From Flavobacteriaceae bacterium (lineage in GTDB: Bacteria > Bacteroidota > Bacteroidia > Flavobacteriales > Flavobacteriaceae), in the NCBI GenBank assembly GCA_965224465.1, contig OZ245049.1:2790001-2822000 (forward strand): 32,000 nt of DNA, written 5' to 3'. The notes under the pieces were generated by a model. It was not told where the DNA came from. It made no database searches and saw only the letters and a program-made list of their open reading frames with translations. Made by a program: the position numbers and the translations under genes. This document shows, in pieces, positions 12,366 through 31,853 of the stretch (its first letter is position 1; each line of letters begins with the position of its first letter).

Positions 12366-12476
12366 ACAACACATACCCCGAAACTATTATAGACATAACG
12401 GAAATAACGTCAAGTCTTGGAAGTTTTTTGATGATATGTGGGTGTTAGCAATAAGCAAAGCAACCAAACTAGAATA

Positions 12477-12785: not shown

Positions 12786-13281
12786 AACAATTATTAAAGA
12801 ACTAGAAAATAAGTTAGTAGAGATGAATGGAATGTTTTGTTCTCAAAAACTAGATGATGATTATTTTCAATTGCCTGAGAAATTAATAAAAAAAACGGGA
12901 AACAAAAGAGATGTGCCGTCTAAAAGAGGGAAACTTGAAATTTGGGCTGCGGCAATAATATATACAATTGGTTCGATTAATTTTCTTTTTGATGAATCCT
13001 TTGATCCTTATATTACAGCACAAGAGATAAGTGATTATTTTGGAACAAAAAATTCAACAGTATCAAATAAAGCTGGATAAATAAGAAAAATATTTGATTT
13101 GACAATGTTTGATAATGAATTTGCAACTGAACGTATGAATGAAACAAATCCGTTTAATGATTTAGTAATGGTTGACGGACTAATAGTTTCACTGTCTTCA
13201 ATTCCTGAAAATTTACAAGAATTGGTAAAAAAGGAAAGGGAGGAAGGACGAGATATCGAATTTACAACTGAAAGAGAATAA
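12778..13281 (+). pseudogene. Hypothetical protein split by a single in-frame TAA (13078-13080)
   Basis: ORFs 12724-13080 and 13099-13281 are in the same frame. The 18 nt between them contain no stop: ...STVSNKAG*IRKIFDLTMFDNEFATERMNE.... A 167-codon frame is therefore broken by one nonsense codon. Confidence 0.55.
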
Positions 13282-13298
13282 ACCCTATTCCTAATCGA

Positions 13299-13520
13299 GT
13301 AGACGGCTCCAACTAAAATAGTAGGAGTGCGCCTCTCACACCATGTACATACTAGAGCTTCGCTCGGTCATTTCTAATTATAAGTGTAAAAACACTTCTA
13401 ATTCTCATGAAGCTACACCGCGGTTCAAAAAATTGAAGTTTGCGTATTATTAATGGTTTCTATCAACCGTTTGTATCCTTTTCGTACAAGTCTAGATTTG
13501 GGTTTGGTAGTTTTTAAAAT
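13299..13520 (-). mobile_element. Group II intron 3' fragment (C-terminal IEP codons plus domain V/VI region)
   Basis: Homologous to 17741-17967 of the full intron copy. It encodes ...SILKTTKPKSRLVRKGYKRLIETINNTQTSIF* on the minus strand. It ends ...GTCTAC on the minus strand at 13299. Homology stops abruptly at 13520. Confidence 0.7.
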
Positions 13521-13655
13521 TGATTTTTTTCTTATTAAGCCATGCTTCTCCAAAAACCACAGAGATATACACCAAGACCATCGAAATAAACAATAAAAAA
13601 AATGTTGGACCGCTTGAAAATTTAAAAAATTTGAATACATTTAACAATAAAAAAA
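13521..13655 (+). pseudogene. Remnant of a tyrosine recombinase 3' end (better-preserved copy)
   Basis: Reads LLSHASPKTTEIYTKTIEINNKKNVGPLENLKNL. The H-x-S-x-K-T-T-E-I-Y-T pattern is the C-terminal catalytic-Tyr box of tyrosine recombinases. No upstream catalytic region remains; an intron fragment replaces it. Confidence 0.55.
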
Positions 13656-13870
13656 ATAATCACTCATTCTACTCTAGCTATGTTAGAAATAACATCTACT
13701 CTAAGAGTTCTATAGTAGATATACGGGTGTTAGCGTTCATTCAAAAAGACCAAACTAGTAAAGTAAACCGATGAAAAACCAGCGCACAAATAGCACATTT
13801 GCAAGCTCCGACACACATGCTGACACTTCAGCTTTCAAAAGAGCTATTTTTTGCCATCACACATAAGCCG

Positions 13871-16800: not shown

Positions 16801-17617
16801 AAAGAGTGAGCAAGATATTTACAGTGAAATATTATTAATAGTATTAGCAAAAGTAAAAACAGAAGAAGCTAAGATTAGTGTTGGGCAACAATTTATTGAA
16901 AAGTGTGCTTCATTTGATAGTCTTCCTTATGAGTTACTAGTTGAAGCATATTTTTACTCCAACAAAATAGAAAATCATTTTGACCATGATAAAAAACTAT
17001 TTAGAATACTACTACAAAGAGACTTCAATTTTATTATTCGATTTTTAAAGTACAATTCTCCAAATCGTATTTCATATCACGACTTAGAGCATGAAAGATT
17101 TGATTTTATTTGGGAATTGGGCAATTCGACTAAAATAATTGACTCTGTATTTGAATTCTTTATTACAAATGAGCCGTTTTACTTTTCAGAAAGAGCAGTA
17201 GCTGCATTTTTTCCTCAAATAAACAGTAAATATGGAAATAAACCAATTGATTATTTAAGAGGTATTCTAGAAGACAAATACTTAAATGATAAATATGTAG
17301 ATGTGGTATTTAGTATAATATGCTATAAATACCCAAGTTTAAAAATGGAAATTTTAGAAATGTTTTTGACTTTAAATAATGATTTTGAGGTTTTTAGAAA
17401 ATTAGAGATTATCCAAAGAAGTAAAAGTTGGTCAGGCAGCTATATTCCAGTAGTTGAAGGAGAAAAAAAGATTTGGGAAAATGTTTTATCAGTTTTAGAA
17501 AGTTTACCAAATAGAATGGATTTCTATGAACACAAGGAATATACCACTAGACAAATTGGTTATTGTGACTTAAGGATTAAAGATGAAATGAAAAGAGAAT
17601 TTCATGAGGACTTTTAG
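13871..17617 (+). CDS. Large three-part protein: nuclease-like N-terminal domain, STAND/ORC-Cdc6-like P-loop NTPase, and ~850-aa all-helical C-terminal region. Candidate NLR-like (Avs-type) defence protein
   Basis: Walker A GAAGTGKS (14513-14536), preceded by GRETEIKDGL. Walker B VLLVDD (14663-14680). Sensor-like IIVTVRD. GNARLA (14933-14950) resembles the ORC/Cdc6 sensor-2 motif GDARxA. The N-terminus has GIPDSYF...LIFAEYTTRE, a possible PD-(D/E)xK-like pattern. The C-terminus is rich in L/F/Y/K/E/I. I prefer the ATG at 13871 (MIKIVEIENAL) to the TTG at 13799. Confidence 0.8.
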   Translation: MIKIVEIENALERINGDIFQEFCNHFLYLKLNPNSITPIGSVIGKEKSRKGIPDSYFTSADNELIFAEYTTRERLKSGESFYNKLKSDLENCFDTSKTGLKNEEINKVILCFTERIKPEERKNLEELCKKYNANCILDLKGIRDLSFAVLDYPILGSFVGIKIGTGQIQEPSEFIANYEKNRISTPLSNSFKGRETEIKDGLNYLETNDVLLVYGAAGTGKSKYAIELAKQFSDKNDYTFLCIGNKGISIWEDLKSFINKDKKYVLLVDDANRLTQNFQLILSLLGERISNSLKIIVTVRDYAYPQIKTIANNCDYSSIEIKIFSNDEIKSIIQSEDFKIKEPSYVDRILKVAQGNARLAIMSAKVALKSNNITQLNDASQIYDEYFEPLFTEVPLLKKPITLKALALIAFFSRIDKSNREFCDYIFSSLEIDEEQFWEICYSLHESELVDLFEQQIVKVSDQIFATYIFYKAVIENETLSFNFFLDNYLDYENKIQDTIVPILNTFDYKKIEVKLKPIIINKWIEIEKQNEYKNSLMFLDLFWYYLGSQVFIFLKKQIDIQVKEITKEYRYTYEMNEFSSGTGKDIELLSKYRNHNDELFKDALELLFYYALNAPSKMPALVYTLKEKFSFSRFGYMYGDHVQHLLFEFLFQNAKAGENKEIYQNIICEILPHYLKIEYRENEGNGRSITLYTFHLWLSKSIESFRGKCFEYLLSVANKTDILEILYRLNFYEYKDSNEILNHDKKYIFQIINNHFHPSVFEDCFVLQHILEGFDYLKVDYTKEISDVSESQLYRLAEVLKKDKQRKKEIGWKEEEKLHEKELLEYCSDFDVTQYDALFENVSSILGKIKNISRDNLEWQYENSLNIILGNIAKSDPKLFLEVITINFDKYQFNLHFVFIFNQFFQNNPKYYFELFKLIKGLKENIKFSFYQTLNIDFANDEHLPLLYAALLDSIKSLSTQYVFWDLTFVSKFDTLKSEQDIYSEILLIVLAKVKTEEAKISVGQQFIEKCASFDSLPYELLVEAYFYSNKIENHFDHDKKLFRILLQRDFNFIIRFLKYNSPNRISYHDLEHERFDFIWELGNSTKIIDSVFEFFITNEPFYFSERAVAAFFPQINSKYGNKPIDYLRGILEDKYLNDKYVDVVFSIICYKYPSLKMEILEMFLTLNNDFEVFRKLEIIQRSKSWSGSYIPVVEGEKKIWENVLSVLESLPNRMDFYEHKEYTTRQIGYCDLRIKDEMKREFHEDF

Positions 17618-18293: not shown

Positions 18294-18457
18294 TATACCA
18301 ATTACAATCCAAAATGACCAATATAAATAGTTTATTTTACGTTCTAGCGTTGTTAAAAAACAGAACGATAGCTATGGCTATCCTTAGGTTTTTAGCCTAG
18401 CTAGAACAAAAAATAATTCCATTTCTAATCCGTCACTTGGAAATGTATTTGGTATTA
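18294..18457 (-). mobile_element. MITE-like 160-bp element, copy 2, inserted in the intron IEP gene
   Basis: Removing 18296-18457 (the 160-bp element 18296-18455 plus one copy of the flanking TA) restores the minus-strand reading GAA CGG CTA AAC CAA GTC TGC CGA GGC TGG (ERLNQVCRGW). This is the expected RT-to-X-domain junction. TA dinucleotides flank the element (18294-95 and 18456-57). Terminal inverted repeats are TACCAA(T/A)T. Confidence 0.55.
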
Positions 18458-20160
18458 GCCGTTCTAAACGTTCCGACAATGACATTGGTTTGGTTTTCTT
18501 GGTAATACTCTTTAGGTTACGCTTAAACTTTGCCCAACTTTTCTTTGCTACTACTAGTATATATTGTCCTTTTACTCCCTTTTTGTAGACTGGCACAAAG
18601 CCATGTCCTAGTAACTCAAAGTTTACGGGTCTACGAATGCCACTTTTGGCTTTATTTATAGGTAGTTTTAATTTGTCTTTTAAGAAGACAAACAACGTAT
18701 TCCCTATTTGTTTCGCCTCACGTTTGGTCTTTGCGTAAATGCTAAAATCATCTGCGTAGCGGACGTACCGTAAACCCATTCTTTTCATTTCTTTATCCAA
18801 GACGTCTAACATTATGTTAGATAGTAAGGGACTAATTGGGCTTCCTTGCGGGATTCCTTTTCTACGCTTTTGAAGTTTCCCATTTATTAAAATAGGAACT
18901 CTAAGCCATTTTCGGATTAAACGCATGGTTGTTGGACATTTTACCCTGTGGTAAATAAGTTGTAGTAGGATACAATGGTCCACTTCATCAAAGAACCCTT
19001 TAAGGTCAATATCTACAATATCTTGGTAACCATTATTGATATACTGTTGAGCTTGTAGTACTGCTTTTTGAATGTTCTTTTGTGGTCTAAACCCAAAACT
19101 AAGTGGCTCAAAATCAAATTCGAACTGAACCATTAATTGTTGGCTTACCGCTTGCTGTAGCCATCTATCTACTACTGTTGGGATTCCTAAAAGTCTGGTT
19201 TTACCCTTGCCTTTTGGAATGCTTACTCCTAAGATTGAGTTTGGAACATAGCTATTCTTACGGATCGTTGTTAGTATGTCTGAACGGTTTTCAACTATAT
19301 AAGTTGAAAGTTCCGTTACTTTCATACCATCAACTCCGCTAGCTCCTTTATTTCGCTTCACTTGACGTGCTGCTTTAAAAAGGTTGGTAGCTTCTAGTAC
19401 TTTGTCAATCATAGGTTAAATAATTCGGGTACTCCTGTTGGTTTAAAACTAGGCTAGCTAGGCATCCTAATTGAATTTCAACGTAATTTAATGTTCTGTC
19501 CTTCCCTATTTGTGAGACCATCTGAGGTCTTTCCTCAACTCGTTTCCCATAGGTACTATGACGTCTGCTGACTTCTCCATAGAACCAACTCCTGGCTTTG
19601 GAGACCTCCCCAGGTAATGACATCTTCTTTCACTCAATCACTGCCGTATCTACATAACTACCCTTTTAGTATTCTTTTGGGCGTTGCAATGATGTGTTTA
19701 CTTACCCAAGTAATTATACCTCTGTATACGGTTTCTGTTCGTCAGTACCGAGCTTTGTAGTCTCGCTTCCTTCAGATAAAACCTCACGGTTTTCACCCTT
19801 GCGACTTACTAATGTTTCAGAACGTTACTCCTGCACATAAGGGACTTGCACCCTCTAGATTAATTAACTACCTTTCCGTAGTTAAAAGATGCCCATGCTG
19901 GGCACACACAATAAATATAGGTCATTTGGCGGATAGTGCTAAATTTGAAATGAGTACAATTAATAAAATATATAGCGGATTGATAGGTTGGAGCTTTGAA
20001 ATGCCAAACGCCCCATATTCGAGCCGTTATCTACAATTAGATAAAATAGTACACATGGATTCATCATTTTTCGTGATGTTTTATTAAAAAAGGGGTGTCG
20101 GGAGTCCAAATAAAACAGAGGAAGTTATTTTAAACATCTATGTTATAACGCAAGTTTGTA

Positions 20161-20340
20161 AAAACAGGGAAATACAATTAAAAAACAATTACCGCATATA
20201 ACTATTTTTTGTATATTTGAAGAACACTTATAGATATAGGCACCTAAACACTAATAACACAATGCTACTATGTGGAAACAAATAGAAATACCCATAGTTA
20301 GAGCTATTGTTATAGGTGATGGTGAGAAGATAAAAAGACA
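20161..20340 (+). repeat. Cassette leader repeat, copy A (promoter-proximal 180 bp only)
   Basis: Near-identical to 27590-27769, 24049-24228 and the matching part of 29990-30089. Homology continues about 60 nt into the CDS. Confidence 0.85.
20212..20219 (+). promoter_or_regulatory. Bacteroidota -7 promoter box TATATTTG (TAnnTTTG) of cassette A
   Basis: Exact match to the TAnnTTTG consensus inside an A/T-rich conserved block, about 120 nt upstream of the start codon. The same box occurs in all five cassettes. Confidence 0.55.
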
Positions 20341-21405
20341 ATGGAAACAAGAAAATTAAAAAAAACAGGTTTTAGAATAACATTTGAAGACGGAGAAACA
20401 ATGACAAAATATTTACAAGCAATTAGCCCTTGTTTTTGCAACAGAGACATTAAAGAGGATGAGCTTGAAGAAATAATCATTGAACTACGAAAAAAAAGCG
20501 GAAGATACGAAGTGTCAAACTTTCTAAATAAAATAAGAAAAACCGGTTTAATTGAAATTAACAAAAAGTACAAACCTAGCGATGACAAAAAGACAAGATT
20601 ATACATTAAAGAGAATGTCTACTATGCTAAATGGGGCAGTGAATTTTACCCAATAGTTGGTGATTTTAAAAAATACACTGGAAGTGAATCTCCTAAAAAA
20701 TATATTAGCAAAATAGATGGTGTTTTTAAAAAATCTATTCTTAAAGAAAAAATAAAAGAATCTGATTGCAACTACAAAACATTTGCAGATCATCTTAATT
20801 GCACATTCACTACAAATAGCATTAATACATGTATCCGTAAAATACATTTTATCGCTCAAACATTTCACGAAACAAATGGTTTTATAGATTCAAGTGAAAA
20901 AGGACAAGGAAAAAAATCATACGGAGGAGGTACGTGTTTTAAAGGCAGAGGCTTAATTCATATAACTCATGATTACAATTACCTTCCTTATTATGATGAA
21001 GCACTGAATACAGGAACCTATAAAGACTCGTCTACAGAGACAAATAAAAAATACCTTGATCTGTATGACGGAAAAAATAAAATTGGAGAAGATGTAACAG
21101 AATTTATTGAAAGAAAAGAAAAAGAAAAAAAAGCACATGGCTTCCCTGATGGTTTTATAAAAGATCACTTAAAGCCATTTGCAAAAGTATTAGCTTCTGA
21201 TTTACAACACGCCTGTTATAGTGCTGGATTCTTTTGGTACTTGAACGATATAAATGATGAAGCTGATTCAGACAATAGTGATGGAGTTTCTAATATAATA
21301 AATGCTGGTGACCAATTGTCCAAAAGAAAACAATACGTAAAATACTTAAAAGAAATTTTTGATTATGAAACTTGTAAGAAAAATCCAAAGAAAAACAAAA
21401 AGTAA
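20341..21405 (+). CDS. Toxin A: shared N-terminal tag plus a C-terminal GH19-like (chitinase/lysozyme-fold) peptidoglycan hydrolase domain
   Basis: The N-terminus METRKLKKTGFRITFEDGETMTKYLQ is shared with 27770. FIAQTFHETNGF (HET at 20866-20874) and FKGRGLIHITHDYNY (20944-20982) match the GH19 signatures (AQxxHET; GRGxxQ[IL][ST]xx[FY]NY). No signal peptide. Confidence 0.75.
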   Translation: METRKLKKTGFRITFEDGETMTKYLQAISPCFCNRDIKEDELEEIIIELRKKSGRYEVSNFLNKIRKTGLIEINKKYKPSDDKKTRLYIKENVYYAKWGSEFYPIVGDFKKYTGSESPKKYISKIDGVFKKSILKEKIKESDCNYKTFADHLNCTFTTNSINTCIRKIHFIAQTFHETNGFIDSSEKGQGKKSYGGGTCFKGRGLIHITHDYNYLPYYDEALNTGTYKDSSTETNKKYLDLYDGKNKIGEDVTEFIERKEKEKKAHGFPDGFIKDHLKPFAKVLASDLQHACYSAGFFWYLNDINDEADSDNSDGVSNIINAGDQLSKRKQYVKYLKEIFDYETCKKNPKKNKK

Positions 21406-22066
21406 TCTTTTATGTATAATTGCGATTACTTTATGCTCTTGTATATCTAGCAATAATGGCAAAAACATTACTAAAAAAAATAATTATGAAAATGTTGAAA
21501 CCAATAGCCTGTCTAATAACTTTTTAAAAAAGCTAATAGACACCCTCTCTGTTAAAGAAAGCGATACGTTATTATTCAGGAAATGGCGAGGATCAAGTAA
21601 TGATTCTGTATTCTTTAACATAAAAACATCAAAATTCATACTACTAAGAAAACCTTATTCGAAGTATTACAAAACAGGAACAAACAAATTTAGCACTTGT
21701 GAATTAACATTCAAAAACACAAAAACTAAAGAAATATTTAATTTTAAGACCTATTCTAATTTAGGCAAAGGTAATAATCCTTACAGTCAAAACAAACTAA
21801 GCAGCTATGTAGACATTGAAATTATATCTAAAAACAAAGGGAAGTTTTTGATTTCAGATCGTAACACAATAGAATATAGCTTGTTATTCGAATTAAAAGA
21901 AAATCAAATAGAAATTAACAAAATAAAAAGAATACCCCTAAGAACAAAATCTATTAAATATTGGTACGAATTAGACACATTAATTACAATTGATAAAAAT
22001 AAGAACCTCATAAACCTAACAGAAATTCAAAAATTTCTTTTTAATGAAAAAAATTTAATGAAATAA
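21365..22066 (+). CDS. Putative immunity lipoprotein for toxin A
   Basis: MKLVRKIQRKTKSNLLCIIAITLCSCISS is a signal peptide with a lipobox-like Cys. Its start overlaps the toxin 3' end by 41 nt. Its position directly downstream of the toxin fits an immunity role. Confidence 0.6.
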   Translation: MKLVRKIQRKTKSNLLCIIAITLCSCISSNNGKNITKKNNYENVETNSLSNNFLKKLIDTLSVKESDTLLFRKWRGSSNDSVFFNIKTSKFILLRKPYSKYYKTGTNKFSTCELTFKNTKTKEIFNFKTYSNLGKGNNPYSQNKLSSYVDIEIISKNKGKFLISDRNTIEYSLLFELKENQIEINKIKRIPLRTKSIKYWYELDTLITIDKNKNLINLTEIQKFLFNEKNLMK

Positions 22067-22155
22067 GCACTATTTATAACAGCTAAGATTAGTGCAATGC
22101 ATAATGCCCCTCCCAACACCTTGGTATCCATAGAAGATCACAACAGGAAACTATA

Positions 22156-22475
22156 GGATTGCGTACAATTAATTAAGAGGCTAGCGACAGCACTTGTTTT
22201 AGATCATTTACTTCTTCACTCTTTTGTGGGGACATGCCAATACAAGTTATTTCCTTCCTATTCAACAATAGATGCAGATAGCTCAACGTTATGACTAAGC
22301 GAATTGTAGTTTTAACCAGTAAAAACAGCTAAAAACAAGTATCTAGTTCTGAATTTTATGTTGTCGAAGCATTGTATGAACTGAGGTAACGGTTTTTAAG
22401 CATCAAAAAAAACAGGGGAATACAATTAAAAAACAATTATCGCATATAACTATTTTTTGTATATTTGAAGAACAC
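22156..22475 (+). repeat. Cassette leader repeat, copy B (upstream part plus promoter; diverges just after the -7 box)
   Basis: Homologous to 27339-27656, including the core AATTAAGAGGCTAGCGACA at 22171-22189. Homology ends at GAAGAACAC (22475). Confidence 0.85.
22460..22467 (+). promoter_or_regulatory. -7 promoter box TATATTTG of cassette B
   Basis: Same conserved TAnnTTTG box, about 115 nt upstream of the ATG at 22582. Confidence 0.5.
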
Positions 22476-22581
22476 ACAATGCCATATATAGAGAATTGAA
22501 AATTAAACAGAAAAACACACCGCTTTATGATTGCCATAACGGATATAGAAGTTTTACCAATAATAAAAGAACCAAGGAATA

Positions 22582-23199
22582 ATGGCATATTACAGCAAGA
22601 CAACAGACCGAATGGATATACATATCGAAGAATATAGAGGGACGGTTTTAATCAAGCAAAAATGGAAATATAATTGGCTAAATGCGATAGGAACTTCTTC
22701 TTGGACACATTCTGAAAAACAAAATTTTCATAACAAAGTAGATCGTTTAATTTGGAATAGTTGGGGGAATCATTTTTTTCTAAAAGTTAAAGGAACTTCG
22801 GACTTTGCTATAAAACACAAAACACTTAGATGGGATAATAATTTTGATATCGAATGGACGCTACACCAAGAACATTGGAAAGTTAATGTGACTAAATATC
22901 CTAATAATTACATTGGTAATCCAACAAGTTCTGTTAGCTGGAATGCAAAAGAGATAAAATTAGACACTAAAGACACCGCTCCACGTAAGAGACCAAGCAA
23001 CGGCGTAAATTACTTTCAATACCCTGTATTACAAGAGTTTGGGCATTCTGTTGGGAATTCAATATTTGCAAATTTAGGAATGCATGGAGATGAATATAAA
23101 ACTTCTAGCAGCCACTATGCGGATAGAAATAGACATTTAGATTTCCTATTGAAAGAATTAAACACAATGATTCCAAACACTCAATTTAGTAAATACTAA
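22582..23199 (+). CDS. Toxin B candidate: zincin-like metallopeptidase fold with a degenerate active site (QEFGH...GDEY)
   Basis: 205 aa with no signal peptide and no METRKL tag. QEFGHSVGN (23032-23046) followed by GMHGDEY resembles the HEFGHxxG...DEY metallopeptidase-effector motif, but Gln (CAA) replaces the first zinc-binding His. It is driven by the shared promoter and followed by a lipoprotein gene. Confidence 0.5.
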   Translation: MAYYSKTTDRMDIHIEEYRGTVLIKQKWKYNWLNAIGTSSWTHSEKQNFHNKVDRLIWNSWGNHFFLKVKGTSDFAIKHKTLRWDNNFDIEWTLHQEHWKVNVTKYPNNYIGNPTSSVSWNAKEIKLDTKDTAPRKRPSNGVNYFQYPVLQEFGHSVGNSIFANLGMHGDEYKTSSSHYADRNRHLDFLLKELNTMIPNTQFSKY

Positions 23200-23205
23200 A
23201 AAATT

Positions 23206-23607
23206 ATGAAAACATACACGATAATCCTTTGTTTATTATTACTTAATTGTACTCATACAATTTCAAAAAAAGAAAAAAACAATATAATGGATGCACCAAA
23301 GAAAACAATAATTATGAACAATCGTGATTTCAATGATATCATGAAATTAGAAAAATTAAAGGCCGTTAAAAAATATGGAAAACCACTTAAAGAAGAATCA
23401 CTCAGACTAGAGGATATGCAAGGAGAATTTTGGAATGGAATTCAAGATGTATACATTAGGAAAGATAAATTAAAGAAACCAGTTTTTATTGAAGAATTAA
23501 CTTGGGAAAAAGATTCTGTAAATTACATAACTGTTTGGTATCAAAACGAACAAAAAAAATCCTTACCAAAACACTTCCTAATATGGGATAAAGGAGCTGA
23601 GTTTTAA
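23206..23607 (+). CDS. Putative immunity lipoprotein for toxin B
   Basis: MKTYTIILCLLLLNCTHT is a signal peptide with Cys. 133 aa. It starts 6 nt after the toxin B stop. Confidence 0.55.
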   Translation: MKTYTIILCLLLLNCTHTISKKEKNNIMDAPKKTIIMNNRDFNDIMKLEKLKAVKKYGKPLKEESLRLEDMQGEFWNGIQDVYIRKDKLKKPVFIEELTWEKDSVNYITVWYQNEQKKSLPKHFLIWDKGAEF

Positions 23608-23624
23608 ATACTCTTTGTACTCGA

Positions 23625-23860
23625 GTAGACGGCTCCAACTAATTCAGGTGGTAGAAACCTCTCACACTAGCGTACCTACGAGAGCTCCGTTCGGTCATTT
23701 CTAACTATAACACCAATTAAAATCCAAAATGAGCGATATAAATAGTGTATATCCATTTCGTGCAAGTCTAGATTTGGGCTTGGCTACCACGGTTCTATTT
23801 GTGCCACCGATTATGGTCAACTTGTGCCACTCTAAAAAATCAAATTCAACTATATTGTTG
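23625..23860 (-). mobile_element. Group II intron 3' fragment (divergent subfamily)
   Basis: Shares CGAGTAGACGGCTCCAACTAA...CCTCTCACAC...GAGAGCT(T/C)CG(C/T)TCGGTCATTTCTAA with the other two copies. The minus strand encodes ...FLEWHKLTIIGGTNRTVVAKPKSRLARNGY, an IEP C-terminal-like sequence. The right boundary is approximate. Confidence 0.6.
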
Positions 23861-23877
23861 TCCAAAAAGCAATAGTT

Positions 23878-24228
23878 GCCAACACAAGTTATTTCCTTCC
23901 TTTTCAATAATAGATGCAGATAGCTCAACGTTATGCATAAGCGAATTGTAGTTTTAATCAGTAAAAACAGCTAAAAACAAGTATCTAGTTCTGAATTTTA
24001 TTTTCGAGAAGCATTGTAGGCATAGGTAACGGTTTTTAAGTACCCAAAAAAACAGGGAAATACAATTAAAAAACAATTATCACATATAACTGTTTTTTAT
24101 ATATTTGAAGAACACTTATAGATATAGGCACCTAAACACTAATAACACAATGCTACTACGTGGAAACAAATAGACATGCCCATAGTTAGAGCTATTGTTA
24201 TAGGTGATGGTGAGAAGATAAAAAGACA
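23878..24228 (+). repeat. Cassette leader repeat, copy C (left part replaced by the intron fragment)
   Basis: Near-identical to 27419-27769. Confidence 0.85.
24100..24107 (+). promoter_or_regulatory. -7 promoter box TATATTTG of cassette C
   Basis: Conserved TAnnTTTG box. Confidence 0.5.
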
Positions 24229-24297
24229 ATGGAAACAAGAAAATTAAAAAAAACAGGTTTTAGAATAACATTTGAAGACGGAGAAACGTTAACTAGG

Positions 24298-25422
24298 CTT
24301 AAATTCAACTAATAAACGCAACTTTTCGATTTGATTCTATGATGGTTATATTTTCAAAACAGAAAAGTAGGAAAACCTACCTTTCTTGTCTTGATGGATA
24401 TGTATCTTACGGTCTCAAATCTCGAAAAAAGAAGTTGTATGAAACACATCACCCAAGCGCAAAGATACACAATTTGTTGCATGTTAAAACAAGGTTATAA
24501 ACAGGTTGAGATAGCAGCTGCTATAGGAAAAGACAAGTCTGTTATTAGCAAAGAGATTAAGCGTAATTCAGACAAAAGAAATGGAGTTTACAAGCATGAA
24601 TTAGCCCAAAAAAAGTATGCTAAACGTCATAAAGAAAAGCCTAAAAGAAAACGCTTTACAGAAGATATTCAACAAGCAATAGAGTTGTTATTGCGAGACG
24701 ATTATAGTCCTGAGCAAGTAGTTGGTGTCCTAAAAAAACAAGGTAAAGAAACGGTGTCTATTGAGCGTATATATCAGCATATTAGGGAAGACAAGAGGAA
24801 TGATGGTGATTTACATACACACCTTCGCAGACAGGGAAGGAGATATAGAAAACGTGGCTCATCAAAGGATTCTAGAGGGGTTATAAAGAATCGTATTAGT
24901 ATAGAACAACGCCCTGAAGTTGTTGAACAAAGAAATCGATTTGGAGATTTAGAGGTCGATTTAATCATAGGTAAAAACCATAATCAAGCCATACTTACCG
25001 TAAATGATAGAGCTTCTGGAATGCTTAAAATGAAAAAAGTAAGCTCTAAAGAAGCAGTTGTTGTCACTAAAGCTATCAATGAAATATTAGAAGACTGGAA
25101 GCCTTATCTACATACTATAACAGCTGATAATGGAAAAGAATTTGCAGGCCATGAGCAGGTTGCAGAAAATTTATGTATTGATTACTTTTTTGCGCATCCA
25201 TATCACTCTTGGGAAAGAGGATCTAACGAAAATTTAAATGGTTTGATTAGACAATATTTTGCCAAAGGAAGTGACTTTACAAACCTAACAGATCAAAGAA
25301 TCAAAGAGGTAGAAACAAAATTAAATAACAGACCTAGGAAGAGACATAAATATCAAAACCCTATATTTGTAATGGAACAATTATTATTTAACTAAAAGTT
25401 GCGTTTGTGACTTGAATTCAGC
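24298..25422 (+). mobile_element. IS30-family insertion sequence (1125 bp)
   Basis: Imperfect ~29-bp terminal inverted repeats: CTTAAATTCAACTAATAAACGCAACTTTT at the left, and the reverse complement of AAAAGTTGCGTTTGTGACTTGAATTCAGC at the right. 3-bp direct duplication AGG (24295-97 and 25423-25). Single transposase ORF. The empty site can be reconstructed from the paralogue at 27830-27845. Confidence 0.85.
24439..25395 (+). CDS. IS30-family DDE transposase
   Basis: N-terminal HTH (MKHITQAQRYTICCMLKQGYKQVEIAAAIGKDKSVISKEIKRN). DDE region motifs DLEVDLIIGK, ITADNGKEF and HSWERGSNENLNGLIRQYF are typical of IS30. Confidence 0.85.
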   Translation: MKHITQAQRYTICCMLKQGYKQVEIAAAIGKDKSVISKEIKRNSDKRNGVYKHELAQKKYAKRHKEKPKRKRFTEDIQQAIELLLRDDYSPEQVVGVLKKQGKETVSIERIYQHIREDKRNDGDLHTHLRRQGRRYRKRGSSKDSRGVIKNRISIEQRPEVVEQRNRFGDLEVDLIIGKNHNQAILTVNDRASGMLKMKKVSSKEAVVVTKAINEILEDWKPYLHTITADNGKEFAGHEQVAENLCIDYFFAHPYHSWERGSNENLNGLIRQYFAKGSDFTNLTDQRIKEVETKLNNRPRKRHKYQNPIFVMEQLLFN

Positions 25423-26572
25423 AGGTATTTACAGCCAATTATTGATAAAAAATGCATTATTAGGTTTGAAGCAGATAGTCATGACAGAAAAAATGGACTT
25501 TTTGGTTTCGATGAAATACCATATAATAACAAAGACCCAAAGAAAACAATAAAAAAACTCTCTAAAATATGTTTATCCGACATTAATAAGTTGAAAGATG
25601 AATACACCCCTATTACTGTAGATAAAAAAGAATACTTTGTGCCTTGGGTAAGTATTAGACAAGGTCAAACGATTACTTTAGACTTAGGTACTACAATTAA
25701 AGAAGAAGACGAATACGAGAGTATTGCTTTTGAAGAACACCCCGACTTTACAATAACACCTACAGATAAAAAAGGTAATGAAGTTGATTTAAAAGAAGCA
25801 AAAAAAGTAAAAATAACCTGTAACAACACAAACCAAAATACCGCACAAATAAAAGTACTAGCAGATGGTAAAGAAGCAGGAGCCATAAATTTTTGGTATC
25901 CAAAACCAAAAAAAGTAAAATTAAAATGGGCGATTGCTGAATTTAATGAAGGTGAGTTTGACTATATTAATGATGATTTTATCTCTTCAAAATTACAAGA
26001 ATATTTCAAAAAAGCGTTTAATCCAGCCTTAATTGATATTGTTATTGAAAATAAAAAACCTTATAAAATAAACATACCTAAATTAGAAACAGCAACAAGC
26101 ACCGACGAAAACAAAGACAAAATTATTAAAATGCATATTACTAAAATGCGTAAAAACATGGATGGTACAACAAGAATTATTTCTACAAAATCTGATGAAA
26201 CAAGATTCACAACCAACCTATATCATATTGGTAAGTATAACAATAACTTAATTAATAATGAAACAATTATTATAATTCTAACTAATTTAAAATGTTCTCG
26301 AATTAATAAAGATGGTTTAACAGAGCGTACTAATGGGTTTTCACTAACAGCTCAGGGTATTTCTATAATGGCATTAGGAAATAAGGAAATTTCTCCATCA
26401 GTTGAAATACCACACGAAATAATGCATGCAATCTGCTTAGAACACACTTTTAATATAGATAGCGGGTTTGAAATATTAAGAGGTAAAACAGATAATTATA
26501 TGGATTATGACAACACTAAAAAACACACCTACAAATGGCAATGGGCTAAACTTCATAAATCTAAATATTCAA

Positions 26573-27226
26573 ATGAAATATAAATTAATTTATATACTAT
26601 TAATAAGCTTATCAGCTTGTAGTCTCCCCAGAAAATTCATTAAAAATGATGATATATGTTCTTTTAATGATAAAATAAATCCTAATGACTTTATTTTAGA
26701 CACCTCTTATATTAAATTAATACAAGATGAAAGACTTTATTATGATATTTATAATAACAAAACGAAACGAAAACGTATTATGTATGATGATGATAATGGT
26801 GAATATGTTTTAAATGAAAGAAATAAAAAAAGTAAAATTATAAAATGGCTTAACTATAATGACAGTTTACAATTAACAAAATCTCATTTTAATTATAAAT
26901 TAGATAATTATTTAGATATAGGTGTAAAAAAATATTATGATAAGAAAGGTAATATAATTAAAACTATAGATTACCGCCAAAAAAACAAGTACCCTATTTG
27001 CTATAGAGAAGCATATAGGATCGTTGAAAAATGGAAACCAAAAAGCTATATAATCAATCATCTAGAACGTGATTTTATTGTAGAAGGAAAAGACACTATT
27101 TATACTTGGGATATTCATATAAAAGATCTTGGAACACCTAAACGAAAAAGTTTTTTATACACTATTAATGCTAAGAATGGTAAAAAAATAAAAAAATCAC
27201 AAACGGTTGTAATCTGTAACGATTAA
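26573..27226 (+). CDS. Immunity lipoprotein, paralogue 1 (cognate of the M43-like toxin)
   Basis: MKYKLIYILLISLSACSLPRKF carries a classical LSAC lipobox. The start overlaps the toxin stop (ATGAAATATAA). Three paralogues are present in the window. Confidence 0.7.
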   Translation: MKYKLIYILLISLSACSLPRKFIKNDDICSFNDKINPNDFILDTSYIKLIQDERLYYDIYNNKTKRKRIMYDDDNGEYVLNERNKKSKIIKWLNYNDSLQLTKSHFNYKLDNYLDIGVKKYYDKKGNIIKTIDYRQKNKYPICYREAYRIVEKWKPKSYIINHLERDFIVEGKDTIYTWDIHIKDLGTPKRKSFLYTINAKNGKKIKKSQTVVICND

Positions 27227-27769
27227 TAACTTATTCTAAGTTAATGCAAAGCCCTATTGCCAATAACTAGGAATATTCGTGCCATGCGTAGCGCCCAGCA
27301 TAAATACCTATTGCTGATGGCGTATCAAAAGAGGGCACTTTGGGATTGCGAGTAATTAAGAGGCTAGCGACAGCACTTGTTTTAGATCATTTACTTCTTC
27401 ACTCTTTTGTGTGGATACGCCAACACAAGTTGTCCCCTTCCTTTTCAACAATAGATGCAGATAGCTCAACGTTATGCATAAGCGAATTGTAGTTTTAATC
27501 AGTAAAAACAGCTAAAAACAAGTATCTAGTTCTGAATTTTATTTTCGAGAAGCATTGTAGGCATAGGTAACGGTTTTTAAGTACCCAAAAAAACAGGGAA
27601 ATACAATTAAAAAACAATTATCACATATAACTGTTTTTTATATATTTGAAGAACACTTATAGATATAGGCACCTAAACACTAATAACACAATGCTACTAC
27701 GTGGAAACAAATAGAAATACCCATAGTTAGAGCTATTGTTATAGGTGATGGTGAGAAGATAAAAAGACA
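27227..27769 (+). repeat. Cassette leader repeat, copy D (full length, 543 bp)
   Basis: Reference copy: post-immunity segment, core AATTAAGAGGCTAGCGACA (27354-27372), about 270 nt of conserved non-coding sequence, promoter, and about 120-nt 5' UTR. Confidence 0.85.
27641..27648 (+). promoter_or_regulatory. -7 promoter box TATATTTG of cassette D
   Basis: Conserved TAnnTTTG box. I did not see a clean -33 TTTG. Confidence 0.5.
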
Positions 27770-28996
27770 ATGGAAACAAGAAAATTAAAAAAAACAGGTT
27801 TTAGAATAACATTTGAAGACGGAGAAACGTTAACTAGGTATTTACAGCCAATTATTGATAAAAAATGCATTATTAGGTTTGAAGCAGATAGTCATGACAG
27901 AAAAAATGGACTTTTTGGTTTCGATGAAATACCATATAATAACAAAGACCCAAAGAAAACAATAAAAAAACTCTCTAAAATATGTTTATCCGACATTAAT
28001 AAGTTGAAAGATGAATACACCCCTATTACTGTAGATAAAAAAGAATACTTTGTGCCTTGGGTAAGTATTAGAAAAGGTCAAACGATTACTTTAGACTTAG
28101 ATACTACAATTAAAGAAGAAGACGAATACGAGAGTATTGCTTTTGAAGAACACCCCGACTTTACAATAACACCTACAGATAAAAAAAGTAATGAAGTTGA
28201 TTTAAAAGAAGCAAAAAAAGTAAAAATAACCTGTAAAAACACAAACCAAAATACCGCACAAATAAAAGTACTAGCAGATGGTAAAGAAGCAGGAGCCATA
28301 AATTTTTGGTATCCAAAACCAAAAAAAGTAACGTTAAAATGGGCGATTGCTGAATTTAACAAAAAGGAGTTTGACGATATTAATGATGATTTTATCTCTT
28401 CAAAATTACAAGAATATTTTAAAAAAGCGTTTAATCCAGCCTTAATTGATATTGTTATTGAAAATGAAGACCCTTATGAAATCAATATTCCTATATTAGA
28501 AACGGCAACAAGCACCGACGAAAACAAAGACAAAATTATTAAAATGCATATTACTAAAATGCGTAAAAACATGGATGGTACAACAAGAATTATCTCTACA
28601 AAATCTGATGAAGCAAGATTCACAACCAACCTATATCATATTGGTAAGTATAACAATAACTTAATTAATAATGAAACAATTATTTTAATTCTAACTAATT
28701 TAAAATGTTCTCGAATTAATAAAGATGGTTTAACAGAGCATACTAATGGGTTTTCACTAACAGCTCAGGGTATTTCTATAATGGCATTAGGAAATAAGGA
28801 AATTTCTCCATCAGTTGAAATACCACACGAAATAATGCATGCAATCTGCTTAGAACACACTTTTAATATAGATAGCGGGTTTGAAATATTAAGAGGTAAA
28901 ACAGATAATTATATGGATTATGACAACACTAAAAAACACACCTACAAATGGCAATGGGCTAAACTTCATAAATCTAAATATTCAAATGAAATATAA
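27770..28996 (+). CDS. Toxin D (intact): shared N-terminal tag plus a C-terminal M43/pappalysin-like metzincin metallopeptidase domain
   Basis: 408 aa with no signal peptide. HEIMHAICLEHTF (28826-28858 covers HExxHxxxxxH) followed by NYMDY (Met-turn-like) resembles the M43 signature HExGHxLGLxHTF...N(F/Y)MDY. The N-terminus is METRKLKKTGFRITFEDGETLTRYLQ. Confidence 0.75.
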   Translation: METRKLKKTGFRITFEDGETLTRYLQPIIDKKCIIRFEADSHDRKNGLFGFDEIPYNNKDPKKTIKKLSKICLSDINKLKDEYTPITVDKKEYFVPWVSIRKGQTITLDLDTTIKEEDEYESIAFEEHPDFTITPTDKKSNEVDLKEAKKVKITCKNTNQNTAQIKVLADGKEAGAINFWYPKPKKVTLKWAIAEFNKKEFDDINDDFISSKLQEYFKKAFNPALIDIVIENEDPYEINIPILETATSTDENKDKIIKMHITKMRKNMDGTTRIISTKSDEARFTTNLYHIGKYNNNLINNETIILILTNLKCSRINKDGLTEHTNGFSLTAQGISIMALGNKEISPSVEIPHEIMHAICLEHTFNIDSGFEILRGKTDNYMDYDNTKKHTYKWQWAKLHKSKYSNEI

Positions 28997-29633
28997 ATTA
29001 ATTTATATAGTATTAATAAGCTTATCAGCTTGTAGTCTCCCCAGAAAATTCATTAAAAATGATGATATATGTTCTTTTAATGATAAAATAAATCCTAATG
29101 ATTTTATTTTAGACACCTCATATTATAACATTATAAAAAGAGAACGTCATTTTTATGATATTTATAATAACAAAACGAAACGAAAGCGTATTATGTCTCA
29201 TAATGGTGAATATGTTTTAAATGAAAGAAACAAAAAAACTAAAATTCTAAAATGGCTTACATATAACGATAGTTTACAATTAATAGAATCTCGTTTTGAT
29301 TATATATTAGATAATTATTTAGATATAGGTGTAGAAAATTATTTTGACAACAAAGGTAATATAATTAAAACTATAGATTACCGCCAAAAAAACAAGTACC
29401 CTATATGCTTTAAAGAAGCATATAGGATCGTTGAAAAATGGAAACCAAAAAGCTATATAATCAATCATCTAGAACGTGATTTTATTGTAGAAGGAAAAGA
29501 CACTATTTATACTTGGGATATTCATATAAAAGATCTTGGAACACCTAAACGAAAAAGTTTTTTATACACTATTAATGCTAAGAATGGTAAAAAAATAAAA
29601 AAATCACAAACGGTTGTAATCTGTAACGATTAA
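28986..29633 (+). CDS. Immunity lipoprotein, paralogue 2
   Basis: MKYKLIYIVLISLSAC lipobox. Overlaps the toxin D stop by 11 nt. 215 aa. Confidence 0.7.
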   Translation: MKYKLIYIVLISLSACSLPRKFIKNDDICSFNDKINPNDFILDTSYYNIIKRERHFYDIYNNKTKRKRIMSHNGEYVLNERNKKTKILKWLTYNDSLQLIESRFDYILDNYLDIGVENYFDNKGNIIKTIDYRQKNKYPICFKEAYRIVEKWKPKSYIINHLERDFIVEGKDTIYTWDIHIKDLGTPKRKSFLYTINAKNGKKIKKSQTVVICND

Positions 29634-30089
29634 TAACTTATTCTAAGTAATGCAAAGCCCTATTGCTTATAACTAGGAATATTCGCGCCATGCGTAGCGC
29701 CCTGCAGAAATACCTATTGCTGATGCCGTATCAAAAGAGGGCACTTTGGAATTGCGTGTAATTAAGAGACTAGCGACAGCACTTGTTTTAGATCATTTAC
29801 TTCTTCACTCTTTTGTGTGGATACGCCAACACAAGTTGTCCCCTTCCTTTTCAACAATAGATGCAGATAGCTCAACGTTATGCATAAGCGAATTGTAGTT
29901 TTAATCAGTAAAAACAGCTAAAAACAAGTATCTAGTTCTGAATTTTATTTTCGAGAAGCATTGTAGGCATAGGTAACGGTTTTTAAGTACCCAAAAAAAC
30001 AGGGAAATACAATTAAAAAACAATTGTCGCATATAACTATTTTTTATATATTTGAAGAACATTTATAGATATAGGCACCTAAACACTAA
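29634..30089 (+). repeat. Cassette leader repeat, copy E (truncated inside the 5' UTR)
   Basis: Homologous to 27227-27685. The core is at 29760-29778 (AATTAAGAGACTAGCGACA). Homology to the leader stops at ...AAACACTAA (30089). Confidence 0.85.
30047..30054 (+). promoter_or_regulatory. -7 promoter box TATATTTG of cassette E
   Basis: Conserved TAnnTTTG box, retained upstream of the truncated toxin stub. Confidence 0.5.
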
Positions 30090-30409
30090 CAATTATTTTA
30101 ATTCTAACTAATTTAAAATGTTCTCGAATTAATAAAGATGGTTTAACAGAGCGTACTAATGGGTTTTCACTAACAGCTCAGGGTATTTCTATAATGGCAT
30201 TAGGAAATAAGGAAATTTCTCCATCAGTTGAAATACCACACGAAATAATGCATGCAATCTGCTTAGAACACACTTTTAATATAGATAGTGGGTTTGAAAT
30301 ATTAAAAGGTAAAACAGATAATTATATGGATTATGACAACACTAAAAAACACACCTACAAATGGCAATGGGCTAAACTTCATAAATCTAAATATTCAAAT
30401 GAAATATAA
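30090..30409 (+). pseudogene. Orphan 3' stub of the M43-like toxin gene (last ~106 codons) fused to the leader
   Basis: 30090-30409 aligns with 28677-28996 of toxin D. The HEIMHAICLEH motif is still encoded (30239-30271). The only in-frame ATG is at 30194 (a 71-aa ORF). About 0.9 kb of the 5' coding sequence plus part of the UTR is deleted. Confidence 0.8.
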
Positions 30410-31046
30410 ATTTATTTATATACTCTTAATAAGCTTATCAGCTTGTAGTCTCCCCAGAAAATTCATTAAAAATAATGATATATGTTCTTTTAATGATAAA
30501 ATAAATCCTAATGACTTTATTTTAGACACCTCATATTTTAACATTATAAAAAGAGAACGTCATTTTTATGATATTTATAATAACAAAACGAAACGAAAAC
30601 GTATTATGTCTCATAATGGTGAATATGTTTTAAATGAAAGAAATAAAAAAACTAAAATTATAAAATGGCTTATCTATAATGACAGTTTACAATTAACAAA
30701 ATCTCATTTTAATTATATATTAGATAATTATTTAGATATAGGTGTAAAAAAATATTATGATAAGAAAGGTAATATAATTAAAACTATAGATTACCGCCAA
30801 AAAAACAAGTACCCTATTTGCTATAGAGAAGCATATAGGATCGTTGAAAAATGGAAACCAAAAAGCTATATAATCAATCATCTGGAACGTGATTTTATTG
30901 TAAAAGAAAAAGACACCATTTATACTTGGAATATTCATATAAAAGATCTCGGAACACCTAAACGAAAAAGTTTTTTATACACTATTAATGCTAAGAATGG
31001 TAAAAAAATAAAAAAATCACAAACGGTTGTAATCTGTAACGATTAA
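30399..31046 (+). CDS. Immunity lipoprotein, paralogue 3 (orphan immunity)
   Basis: MKYKFIYILLISLSAC lipobox. Intact 215-aa frame downstream of the toxin stub. Confidence 0.7.
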   Translation: MKYKFIYILLISLSACSLPRKFIKNNDICSFNDKINPNDFILDTSYFNIIKRERHFYDIYNNKTKRKRIMSHNGEYVLNERNKKTKIIKWLIYNDSLQLTKSHFNYILDNYLDIGVKKYYDKKGNIIKTIDYRQKNKYPICYREAYRIVEKWKPKSYIINHLERDFIVKEKDTIYTWNIHIKDLGTPKRKSFLYTINAKNGKKIKKSQTVVICND

Positions 31047-31192
31047 TAATTTACACTAAGTTAATGCAAAGCCCTATCACCAATAACTAGGAATATTCGT
31101 GCTGTGCGTAGCGTCCAGCATAAATACCTATTGCTGATGCCGTATCAAAAGAGGGCACTTTGGGATTGCGTGTAATTAAGAGGCTAGCGACA
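31047..31192 (+). repeat. Leader repeat, copy F (post-immunity segment only, ending at the core motif)
   Basis: Homologous to 27227-27372. Homology stops right after AATTAAGAGGCTAGCGACA (31174-31192), and different sequence follows. Confidence 0.8.
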
Positions 31193-31367: not shown

Positions 31368-31853
31368 ATGAAAAATATTTTAGTTACAGTTTTAGTTTTA
31401 GTGCTTTTTTCTTGTGACAACTACAAGGAAGAATGCTGCCAAAACATTGAGGCTGATTTACAAATTTCCATTACAAATAGTGAAGGAAAAGATTTATTAA
31501 ACCCTCTTAGTGGGGAAATAAACATGAATAACTTCAAGCTTTATTATAAAAATAAATCAGGAAATTTAATTTTATTTGACAAACCTAATTTAGATAATTC
31601 TAGAGGGTTTAAATTAGTAAGTCCAGAAGGTAGTGGACTTCAATTTTACACTATTATTTTAGCTCTAAATACAGAGTACTTAGAAAATAATACGTCATTG
31701 AATATTATTAGTTGGAGTAAAGAAAAAAAACATGAAATTAAAACCTTATTCTCAAAAGAAAACAATAATCTGATTGCTGAAAACATTTATATTGACAATA
31801 AATTAGTTATTAAGGTTGGAGAAAAACGTTTCACTACTATTATCGACTTGTAA
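31368..31853 (+). CDS. Hypothetical lipoprotein (possible inhibitor/immunity partner of the upstream remnant)
   Basis: MKNILVTVLVLVLFSCDNY carries an LFSC lipobox. 161 aa. Starts 8 nt after the remnant stop. Confidence 0.6.
   Translation: MKNILVTVLVLVLFSCDNYKEECCQNIEADLQISITNSEGKDLLNPLSGEINMNNFKLYYKNKSGNLILFDKPNLDNSRGFKLVSPEGSGLQFYTIILALNTEYLENNTSLNIISWSKEKKHEIKTLFSKENNNLIAENIYIDNKLVIKVGEKRFTTIIDL

Follow-up and report, generated by a model that had tools for sequence, protein, structure and literature searches.

A short N-terminal tag with a predicted hairpin fold on candidate toxins of a Flavobacteriaceae cassette array and its putative pairing with an extended TssD

We analyzed a window of 32,000 nt (the whole stretch of DNA under study) from a Flavobacteriaceae bacterium (GenBank assembly GCA_965224465.1, contig OZ245049.1, positions 2,790,001 to 2,822,000 of the forward strand). 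The window is AT-rich (G+C content of 32%) and its housekeeping proteins group with those of marine Flavobacteriaceae. From the reading of open reading frames (ORFs), positions 20160-31192 contain five consecutive cassettes on the plus strand, named A to E, each pairing a candidate toxin gene with a lipoprotein gene downstream of it. An earlier note on this DNA had described toxin/immunity cassettes that reuse one promoter-bearing leader and a short N-terminal peptide, here called the tag, in front of different toxin domains. We mapped the repeats by BLAST of cassette D (27227-29660), which serves as the reference, against the region. The features are the following.

20160-20340, plus strand: leader A, 181 nt in common with D (95% identity to D 27589-27769), with the box TATATTTG at 20212-20219 and a 5' untranslated region (5'UTR) of ~115 nt
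20341-20418, plus strand: tag segment of toxin A (METRKLKKTGFRITFEDGETMTKYLQ), in common with C and D; beta-hairpin predicted by AlphaFold2 (AF2), peptide kept in other genera
20341-21405, plus strand: toxin A, 354 aa, tag followed by a predicted GH19 endolysin/chitinase-like muramidase (homolog names, Foldseek, invariant Glu)
21359-22066, plus strand: immunity A, putative lipoprotein overlapping the 3' end of toxin A (ORF, lipobox-like LCSC)
22137-22475, plus strand: leader B, with the part upstream of the -7 box and the box itself (22460-22467) in common with D 27324-27656 (89% identity)
22582-23199, plus strand: toxin B candidate, 205 aa, no family; QEFGH instead of HExxH
23206-23607, plus strand: immunity B candidate, small lipoprotein of 133 aa (signal and lipobox-like N-terminus MKTYTIILCLLLLNC)
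23878-24228, plus strand: leader C, 98.6% identity to D
24229-24297, plus strand: first 23 codons of toxin C (the tag), cut by an insertion sequence (IS); alignment with D
24298-25422, plus strand: IS30-family IS with its transposase of 334 aa at 24391-25395 (break in C/D collinearity, ends read, ORF)
25423-26583, plus strand: rest of the metzincin toxin C, which without the IS is open and follows D collinearly; 96% nucleotide identity
26507-27226, plus strand: immunity C lipoprotein, probable start MKYKLIY at 26573; 88-91% amino acid identity to immunity D and E
27227-27769, plus strand: leader D, 543 nt, the full-length unit, -7 box at 27641-27648
27770-28996, plus strand: toxin D, 408 aa, with tag, Ig/filamin-like domain and predicted adamalysin/fragilysin-like metzincin (HEIMHAICLEH; AF2, Foldseek, homologs)
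28920-29633, plus strand: immunity D lipoprotein, probable start at 28986, weakly PepSY-like (lipobox LSAC, Pfam below cutoff)
29634-30092, plus strand: leader E, cut inside the 5'UTR by a 988-nt deletion (BLAST against D)
30088-30409, plus strand: what is left of a metzincin toxin gene, its final ~106 codons (3' end), lacking both the tag and a start context (BLAST against D)
30333-31046, plus strand: immunity E lipoprotein, an orphan immunity gene (ORF)
31047-31192, plus strand: unit F, the start of a sixth, partial leader, a sequence found after each immunity gene; 93% identity to D 27227-27372

The repeated non-coding unit of up to 543 bp was confirmed, with cassette D carrying its full form. 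In cassette A the match covers 20160-20425 (D 27589-27854, 95% identity) and includes 181 nt upstream of the gene as well as 85 nt of coding sequence. In cassette B (22137-22475 against D 27324-27656) the likeness ends just past the putative -7 box, neither the 5'UTR nor the coding sequence being common with D; this cassette shares only the promoter part, as had been noted. Cassette C follows D over 23878-24297, is interrupted by the 1125-nt IS30-family element and resumes at 25423-27254 with 96% identity. Cassette E corresponds to D in two blocks (29634-30092 to D 27227-27686, and 30088-31074 to D 28675-29660). The deletion between them begins within the 5'UTR and reaches toxin codon ~302; it removed the 3' part of the 5'UTR, the tag with the start codon and ~300 toxin codons. 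The tag is therefore present in three cassettes (A, C and D) rather than in the four first proposed.

The C, D and E copies are 96-99% identical and lie in tandem; judged from these sequences, they are recent tandem copies of one cassette and not cases of independent reuse. The earlier view of a leader reused in five cassettes thus holds for the presence of the repeat but not for its independence. The same leader and tag ahead of different toxins are seen only in A versus D, which are also the only cassettes with intact tagged toxins. The toxin gene of cassette C is broken after codon 23 and shows no internal stops once the IS is removed in silico. Since the rest of the gene is intact, the insertion appears to be recent. 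The element was assigned to the IS30 family by ORF inspection, not by profile search, and its ends, read directly, carry terminal inverted repeats that are imperfect, together with a target duplication of 3 bp (AGG).

No hydrophobic signal peptide was seen on any toxin when the N-termini were inspected, and an ORF with a lipobox comes after each toxin, either overlapping it or beginning at most 7 nt downstream; both observations agree with the earlier note. Homologs of toxin A are annotated as GH19 or as predicted chitinase. Its AF2 model (predicted local distance difference test, pLDDT, of 87) was matched by Foldseek to GH19 phage endolysins and chitinases (probability 1.0) and to TseP, a type VI secretion system (T6SS) effector. 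Residues E177 and E186 are invariant in the homolog alignment. A comparison with Pfam PF00182 did not reach E<=0.1. The model is that of a GH19 lysozyme-like fold with two catalytic glutamates, and the proposal of a GH19-like muramidase is well supported by the Foldseek hits, the homolog names and the invariant glutamates. Homologous pairs, each made of a toxin and a gene of ~239 aa downstream of it, recur in an uncultured Flavobacteriaceae (locus L003). The GH19 homologs include one fusion to DUF4280 (PF14107), which we take to be a PAAR-like family.

For toxin D, the AF2 model (pLDDT 92) comprises an Ig/filamin-like domain and a metzincin domain, for which Foldseek returned adamalysin/ADAMTS/fragilysin-like structures. 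In the zinc site HEIMHAICLEH, residues H353, E354, H357 and H363 are invariant, and the Gly of HExxHxxGxxH is replaced by Cys where relatives keep Gly. As modeled, toxin D is a metzincin metallopeptidase with an HExxHxxGxxH-type site on an adamalysin-like catalytic fold. It had been called M43-like; because the match to Pfam M43 (PF05572) scores 15.5 bits (E=0.017) against a curated cutoff of 23, we prefer to describe it as an Ig-like domain joined to an adamalysin/ADAMTS/fragilysin-like metzincin. Immunity D resembles Pfam PepSY below the cutoff (E=0.025), and its ortholog in Tenacibaculum finnmarkense does so at E=5.8e-4. The overall description of the region as a toxin/immunity array is consistent with a GH19 endolysin-like toxin A, a metzincin toxin D and a weakly PepSY-like metzincin immunity protein. 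Proteins of 53-90 aa in many T. finnmarkense assemblies are C-terminal metzincin fragments equivalent to the remnant of cassette E. The many annotated fragments suggest that orphans made of a toxin remnant and an immunity gene appear common in the metzincin family.

Toxin B had been considered peptidase-like, a description that found no sequence match in Pfam, NCBIfam or the PDB, no large database search having been made for this protein. Its QEFGHSVGN stretch reads as a zincin-like HExxH with the first His replaced by Gln. We did not retain toxin B as a tagged effector or as a peptidase, given that it has no family and that its N-terminus does not match the generic tag profile (p=0.84).

The tag shared within the window (METRKLKKTGFRITFEDGET[L/M]T[R/K]YLQ; class 1) is restricted to A, C and D and extends over ~26 residues. 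For both toxin A and toxin D, AF2 predicts the same beta-hairpin (strands at residues 10-14 and 20-24), ahead of unrelated folds; pLDDT in the hairpin block is 83-87 for the first strand and 66-69 for the second. Outside this genome, identical or near-identical tags were found in Lacinutrix, Aquimarina and uncultured Flavobacteriaceae. Word-indexed searches identified the class-1 tag on GH19 proteins (toxin A, P0077 and P0074) and on metzincins (toxin D, P0002, P0006, P0011 and P0014), P0006 being encoded on the same source contig as the window. A back-translated tag pattern matched only Lacinutrix and Aquimarina among the GTDB representatives and nothing in the JGI metagenomes. We then extended the search of relatives that the earlier note had called for to 1.84e9 representative proteins, using an exhaustive hidden Markov model profile of the tag (E<=1e-3). 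This yielded 18 clusters, in nearly all of which the match begins at residue 1-3. The clusters span at least seven different C-terminal bodies, among them GH19, Ig plus metzincin, a 545-aa Reprolysin-like protein, two other zincins, a Peptidase_C15-like protein of 578 aa and small proteins without assignment. The suggestion that the short tag is a portable N-terminal module is borne out by its occurrence on unrelated toxin domains in several genera.

Comparison of the tag codons between genomes gave ratios of synonymous to non-synonymous changes of 7:1, 7:3, 9:3 and 8:5. Because only the tag peptide is kept across genera and the changes are mostly synonymous, selection seems to act on the peptide and not on DNA homology; by this sequence criterion, the tag peptide is under purifying selection. 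At least eight further classes of hairpin-like peptides of 18-35 aa were found at the N-termini of GH19 and metzincin proteins, and several of these classes are common to both. Ten tag peptides had no match in Pfam.

Two side observations concern the tag codons and a tagged gene. The segment TTA AAA AAA ACA creates an A8 homopolymer (20355-20362, 24243-24250 and 27784-27791), which is interrupted in other genomes (AAG AAA); one may speculate that the A8 run allows slipped-strand on/off switching of the toxin. The sole class-1 tagged gene of the species representative of Lacinutrix mariniflava (L001, 1858-2984) is frameshifted (112 aa + 275 aa) and stands alone with its immunity gene amid housekeeping genes.

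The homologs of the toxins point to a T6SS of subtype iii (T6SSiii). An N-terminal TssD domain (PF17642) is found on ~30 of 72 toxin D homologs and PAAR on one. The toxin domains begin at about residue 30, at the same boundary where the TssD fusions join the toxin, and the TssD-metzincin fusions that we examined present neither the tag nor the TssD extension described below. Two T. finnmarkense plasmids carry the nearest DNA homolog (77% identity) of toxin D and immunity D, and there the pair sits between TssF/TssN/TssD genes and TssO/TssR/TssD/VgrG genes. In an Aquimarina metagenome-assembled genome, the start of a class-1 tagged effector overlaps by ATGA a TssD gene whose product (Pfam E=1.5e-11) has a C-terminal extension of ~85 aa. 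We collected 12 loci with such a TssD plus extension (L002, L004, L005, L006-8, L009, L010, L011, L015/16, L017/18, L019, L020/21 and L022/23). In all 12, the start of the next gene lies from 20 nt upstream to 22 nt downstream of the stop codon of TssD. This gene codes for an effector whose short N-terminus is of the hairpin type, and 1-6 lipoprotein genes come after it. The tag is of class 1 or diverged class 1 in L002, L011 and L020, and L010 is located inside a T6SSiii cluster with TssC, gp25, ClpV, TssN and TssO. Among the delivery routes listed in the earlier note, T6SSiii is thus favored by the TssD and PAAR fusions, by L010 and by the T. finnmarkense homolog. The central idea of that note, a minimal delivery tag at the N-terminus of polymorphic toxins, is supported.

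The extension (approximate consensus YY.TDL.G..I...G..IYLVIET.N.IG....I.L.D...DF.Y.G..LK.D.L....I..D..KI.L.VI.) is kept on otherwise unrelated TssD cores (L002, L004, L005, L009, L010, L011, L015, L018, L020 and L022) and appears, from these sequences, to be shuffled independently of the core. It had no match in Pfam or NCBIfam, and a search of PDB sequences with the extension profile returned nothing meaningful. NCBIfam also returned nothing for the toxins, the immunity proteins and the full TssD with its extension. At L009 (8666-11867), six tandem paralogous lipoprotein immunity genes of 170-182 aa each stand after a single 651-aa tagged effector, downstream of the TssD plus extension gene. 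In the plasmid T6SSiii clusters of T. finnmarkense (L022 8777-10068 and L023 5775-6505; CP116296 and CP116298), the TssD plus extension is frameshifted after codon ~58. A further indel in one strain joins the extension in frame to a class-2 tagged effector, and the metzincin ortholog of the other strain is split (319 + 90 aa). We did not count the single ORF of CP116296, in which extension and class-2 tagged effector are joined, as a functional Rosetta-stone fusion because the 5' part of TssD is frameshifted in both strains; in CP116298 the TssD extension and the class-2 tagged effector are separate genes 4 nt apart.

Pairwise similarities between segments were then compared with Mantel tests across 10 loci. 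Tag similarity follows that of the TssD extension, both over its whole length (r=0.67, p~1e-4) and in its distal (N-terminal) half (r=0.60, p=0.002). No significant correlation links the tag to the TssD core or the linker (r~0), and that with the effector body is only weak. The extension itself correlates with the effector body at r 0.2-0.3 and is uncorrelated with the TssD core. This pattern suggests that extension and tag are inherited together as a single module, with recombination points at either end. Such co-inheritance would be the pattern expected of a receptor/ligand pair.

These results lead us to propose, with a probability of about 0.62, that the array consists of orphan effector/immunity cassettes for a T6SSiii, unlinked to the apparatus itself, and that their hairpin docks on a specialized TssD. 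Each cassette would be transcribed from its own Bacteroidota-type promoter, and the toxin, which by its sequence has no signal peptide, would be made with its first ~25 residues folded as the predicted beta-hairpin. Comparative genomics suggests that this hairpin would serve as the loading handle for a TssD/Hcp with the ~85-aa extension, encoded elsewhere in the genome. The T6SSiii would then fire the toxin into neighboring bacteria where, according to the predicted folds, the GH19 toxin would cut the glycan strands of peptidoglycan and the metzincin a periplasmic target. Sister cells would be protected by the downstream lipoprotein, which in the case of the metzincin would probably act by way of an inhibitor domain weakly resembling PepSY. 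As for the history of the array, the ~0.5-kb leader may have provided the homology for the tandem duplication that gave rise to C, D and E, and the toxin/immunity pair of A, a different one, may have come to stand behind this leader and tag through recombination just past the tag. Cassettes C and E would have decayed, by IS insertion and by deletion respectively, with the immunity genes retained.

We hold a more specific version of this model only tentatively: the ~25-residue hairpin might be a sufficient portable T6SSiii tag that docks, perhaps by beta-strand complementation, on the ~85-aa C-terminal domain of TssD, and the tag/extension classes (at least eight tag classes) might form a specificity code feeding cassettes from anywhere in the genome.

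Several observations weigh against the proposed docking of the hairpin on TssD. No T6SS gene lies in the 32-kb window, as the earlier note had stated for secretion machinery in general, and a TssD profile search, of low sensitivity, found no protein from the 5.24-Mb source contig among the only 279 candidates screened. The correlation was obtained from only 10 loci, of which L002 and L020 share the whole effector, and it might arise in part from physical linkage, a confounding factor since tag and extension are adjacent in the DNA. The second strand of the hairpin and the linker are predicted with a pLDDT of only 66-69, and cassette B has a toxin candidate whose N-terminus is not significantly tag-like. 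A 47-kDa metzincin is large for a cargo of the tube lumen, the loading region of Bacteroides being ~70 aa and located inside the Hcp ring, so the geometry of loading may differ from that of Bacteroides. Finally, we infer promoter use, binding, secretion, toxicity and immunity for the members of the array.

Other explanations start from the leader. The TATATTTG box of each of the five units falls on one alignment position (20212, 22460, 24100, 27641 and 30047), in agreement with the exact TAnnTTTG -7 box first reported, but TAnnTTTG is not enriched in the window (45 matches vs 53.5 expected), so that the promoter call depends solely on the conserved position. A sigma-70 promoter scan was discarded as uninformative for Bacteroidota. 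It could be argued that the leader is the key feature, as a regulatory RNA (a riboswitch or a small RNA target) coordinating all cassettes, given that the ~115-nt 5'UTR is 95-99% identical in A, C and D and folds somewhat better than shuffled sequences (z=-2.7; 2 of 200 shuffles fold equally well). We give this idea hardly any credence: the leader has no match in Rfam at E<=1, cassette B has the promoter with a different UTR, and the sequence upstream of the tag in Lacinutrix, L003 or Aquimarina has no likeness to the window, the tag-coding segment being the only part that aligns. As the leader is not kept in other genomes, its reuse reflects recent intragenomic duplication and recombination, which accounts for its identity. 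We therefore rejected the promoter and 5'UTR as a conserved RNA element. The tag itself might also have no role in delivery: leader and tag would then simply be a recombination handle, or a duplication scar, for swapping toxin/immunity pairs into an expressed slot, as for orphan CdiA-CT/Rhs-CT modules. Within the window, identity indeed runs unbroken from the leader into the coding sequence and then stops abruptly, C, D and E are recent tandem copies, and the leader is specific to this genome. Nevertheless, what is conserved across genera is the peptide-coding part with its mostly synonymous changes, located at the extreme N-terminus of complete proteins with many bodies and co-varying with the neighboring TssD extension. 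A handle without any delivery role thus seems quite unlikely, and a role in recombination is compatible with one in loading.

If the tag does act in delivery, its target might be other than the TssD extension, either elsewhere in the T6SSiii (an adaptor, VgrG or a PAAR-like protein) or in a separate machine, for example an extracellular contractile injection system (eCIS). In place of TssD, some homologous toxin domains carry a PAAR or PF14107/DUF4280 fusion, and the tagged cassettes of the window, L001 and L003 have no TssD neighbor. The cargos of eCIS do use N-terminal signals, but these are longer and disordered rather than structured hairpins, and no eCIS genes were noticed in the fetched loci, where no dedicated eCIS search was made. 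Since a tagged effector follows the TssD plus extension gene in 12 of 12 loci and the tag co-varies with the extension, we consider such another target unlikely. The tag could also be a vestige of TssD: a deletion in an ancestral fusion of TssD and toxin would have left it behind, today with at most a structural function. Many homologs are TssD fusions, the short forms P0017, P0019 and P0032 begin with C-terminal strands of TssD (16-33 bits), and class-1 tags align weakly to the central TssD hairpin (1-3 bits, p 0.005-0.045). We regard this origin as very improbable. Against the TssD profile the tags score near zero (0-3 bits, with inconsistent placement), which led us to reject them as N-terminal, central or C-terminal hairpin fragments of TssD, the truncated-TssD positive controls scoring 16-33 bits. 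Moreover, tblastn with TssD domains found no TssD remnant in the window DNA (nothing better than E~0.06), the tag is under purifying selection, and in the split loci the upstream TssD is complete over positions 1-127 of the Pfam profile, which indicates that the tag is not its missing piece.

The docking model finds its closest precedent in Bacteroides fragilis, where Hcp2-Hcp3 heterohexamers recognize effectors through an N-terminal loading region, as established in 2026 by cryo-electron microscopy and mutagenesis (PMC13035841). That region contains an antiparallel beta-strand pair, variable in sequence, which co-evolves with Hcp3 and whose swap switches specificity (PMC13035841); minor Hcps co-segregate with their effectors (PMC13213661). 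The designation of the array as an undescribed system was therefore too strong (PMC13035841, PMC13213661). Like the GA3 T6SSiii of B. fragilis (Bte1, Bfe1 and LysM; PMC13035841, PMC13213661), the tagged relatives would belong to the T6SSiii class of Bacteroidota and present a sequence-variable, predicted N-terminal pair of antiparallel beta-strands ahead of unrelated toxin domains, which in the relatives seems to co-vary with a dedicated Hcp/TssD encoded just upstream. They differ in that the tag is a single hairpin of ~25 aa, with no conserved N-terminal fold of ~70 residues as in B. fragilis, and in that the co-varying partner is the ~85-aa C-terminal extension of TssD, not its core or inner ring surface. 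The cassettes of the window are further distinguished by their own putative promoter, by being unlinked to TssD and by their origin in marine Flavobacteriaceae, and they are known here from sequence and predicted structure.

A second parallel is offered by Hcp-toxin fusions (Hcp-ET, specialized or evolved Hcp), as the same metzincin domain is fused C-terminally to TssD in many Flavobacteriaceae. These fusions suggest that delivery of the domain depends on the tube protein. In contrast, the toxins of the window are not fused to TssD and have no TssD remnant, the short tag, and in relatives a TssD extension encoded by a separate gene, taking the place of the covalent link. The MIX, FIX and RIX domains are several times longer than the ~25-aa tag and are associated with T6SSi, RIX being loaded through VgrG or adaptors. 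They have no sequence relation to the tags, for which Pfam gave no match. Like the tags, these proteobacterial domains are shared N-terminal elements of polymorphic effectors and allow T6SS-unlinked effectors to be found (for RIX, PMC10435454). Finally, orphan Rhs/CdiA/MafB modules also consist of tandem toxin/immunity pairs, with degraded toxins and retained immunity genes (here C and E) and a short shared 5' stretch able to mediate recombination. Unlike these modules, the cassettes come with a start codon, a leader resembling a promoter and a small but complete N-terminal module, and could yield effectors by themselves, with no need to recombine into a large delivery gene; with a shared part of ~26 residues, no large conserved N-terminal delivery region of the Rhs/CdiA/MafB type is present.

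What may be new is the minimal ~25-aa form of the tag, its pairing with a TssD extension and the existence of unlinked, self-promoted cassettes; in the literature that we searched, neither the extension nor these tags are described for Flavobacteriaceae, and such cassettes are not described either. Should the proposed function hold, no T6SS cargo-loading element known to us would be as short as the tag. A ~25-aa peptide with a defined receptor domain would be directly testable and usable for the loading of foreign cargo, and it could help to explain how effectors as large as the 47-kDa metzincin are coupled to the Bacteroidota tube. The tag families could further serve as a signature for T6SSiii effectors unlinked to their apparatus in marine Flavobacteriaceae, including fish pathogens such as Tenacibaculum, for which no effector catalog of this kind was found in the literature searched. 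The array also documents the turnover of an arsenal through duplication, swapping at the tag, IS disruption and the retention of orphan immunity genes.

Several neighboring elements are worth reporting. A group II intron lies on the minus strand directly upstream of cassette A (18384-19800), with a reverse-transcriptase ORF of 342 aa (18384-19412) and Rfam matches to D1-D4 at 19527-19793 (126 bits). The homology between the leaders of A and D stops at 20160, and the intron or its insertion site may have truncated the upstream unit of A. At the other end, the 146-nt partial leader copy is followed by a lipoprotein gene of 161 aa without family (31368-31853), which may be the orphan immunity gene of a lost sixth cassette. 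Upstream of the array, 12438-17617 includes a gene for a 1272-aa protein with an nSTAND3 STAND NTPase domain (E=2.8e-9), adjoined by a DUF6398 protein (E=9e-30) and a small ORF without assignment; this may be a conflict or defense locus.

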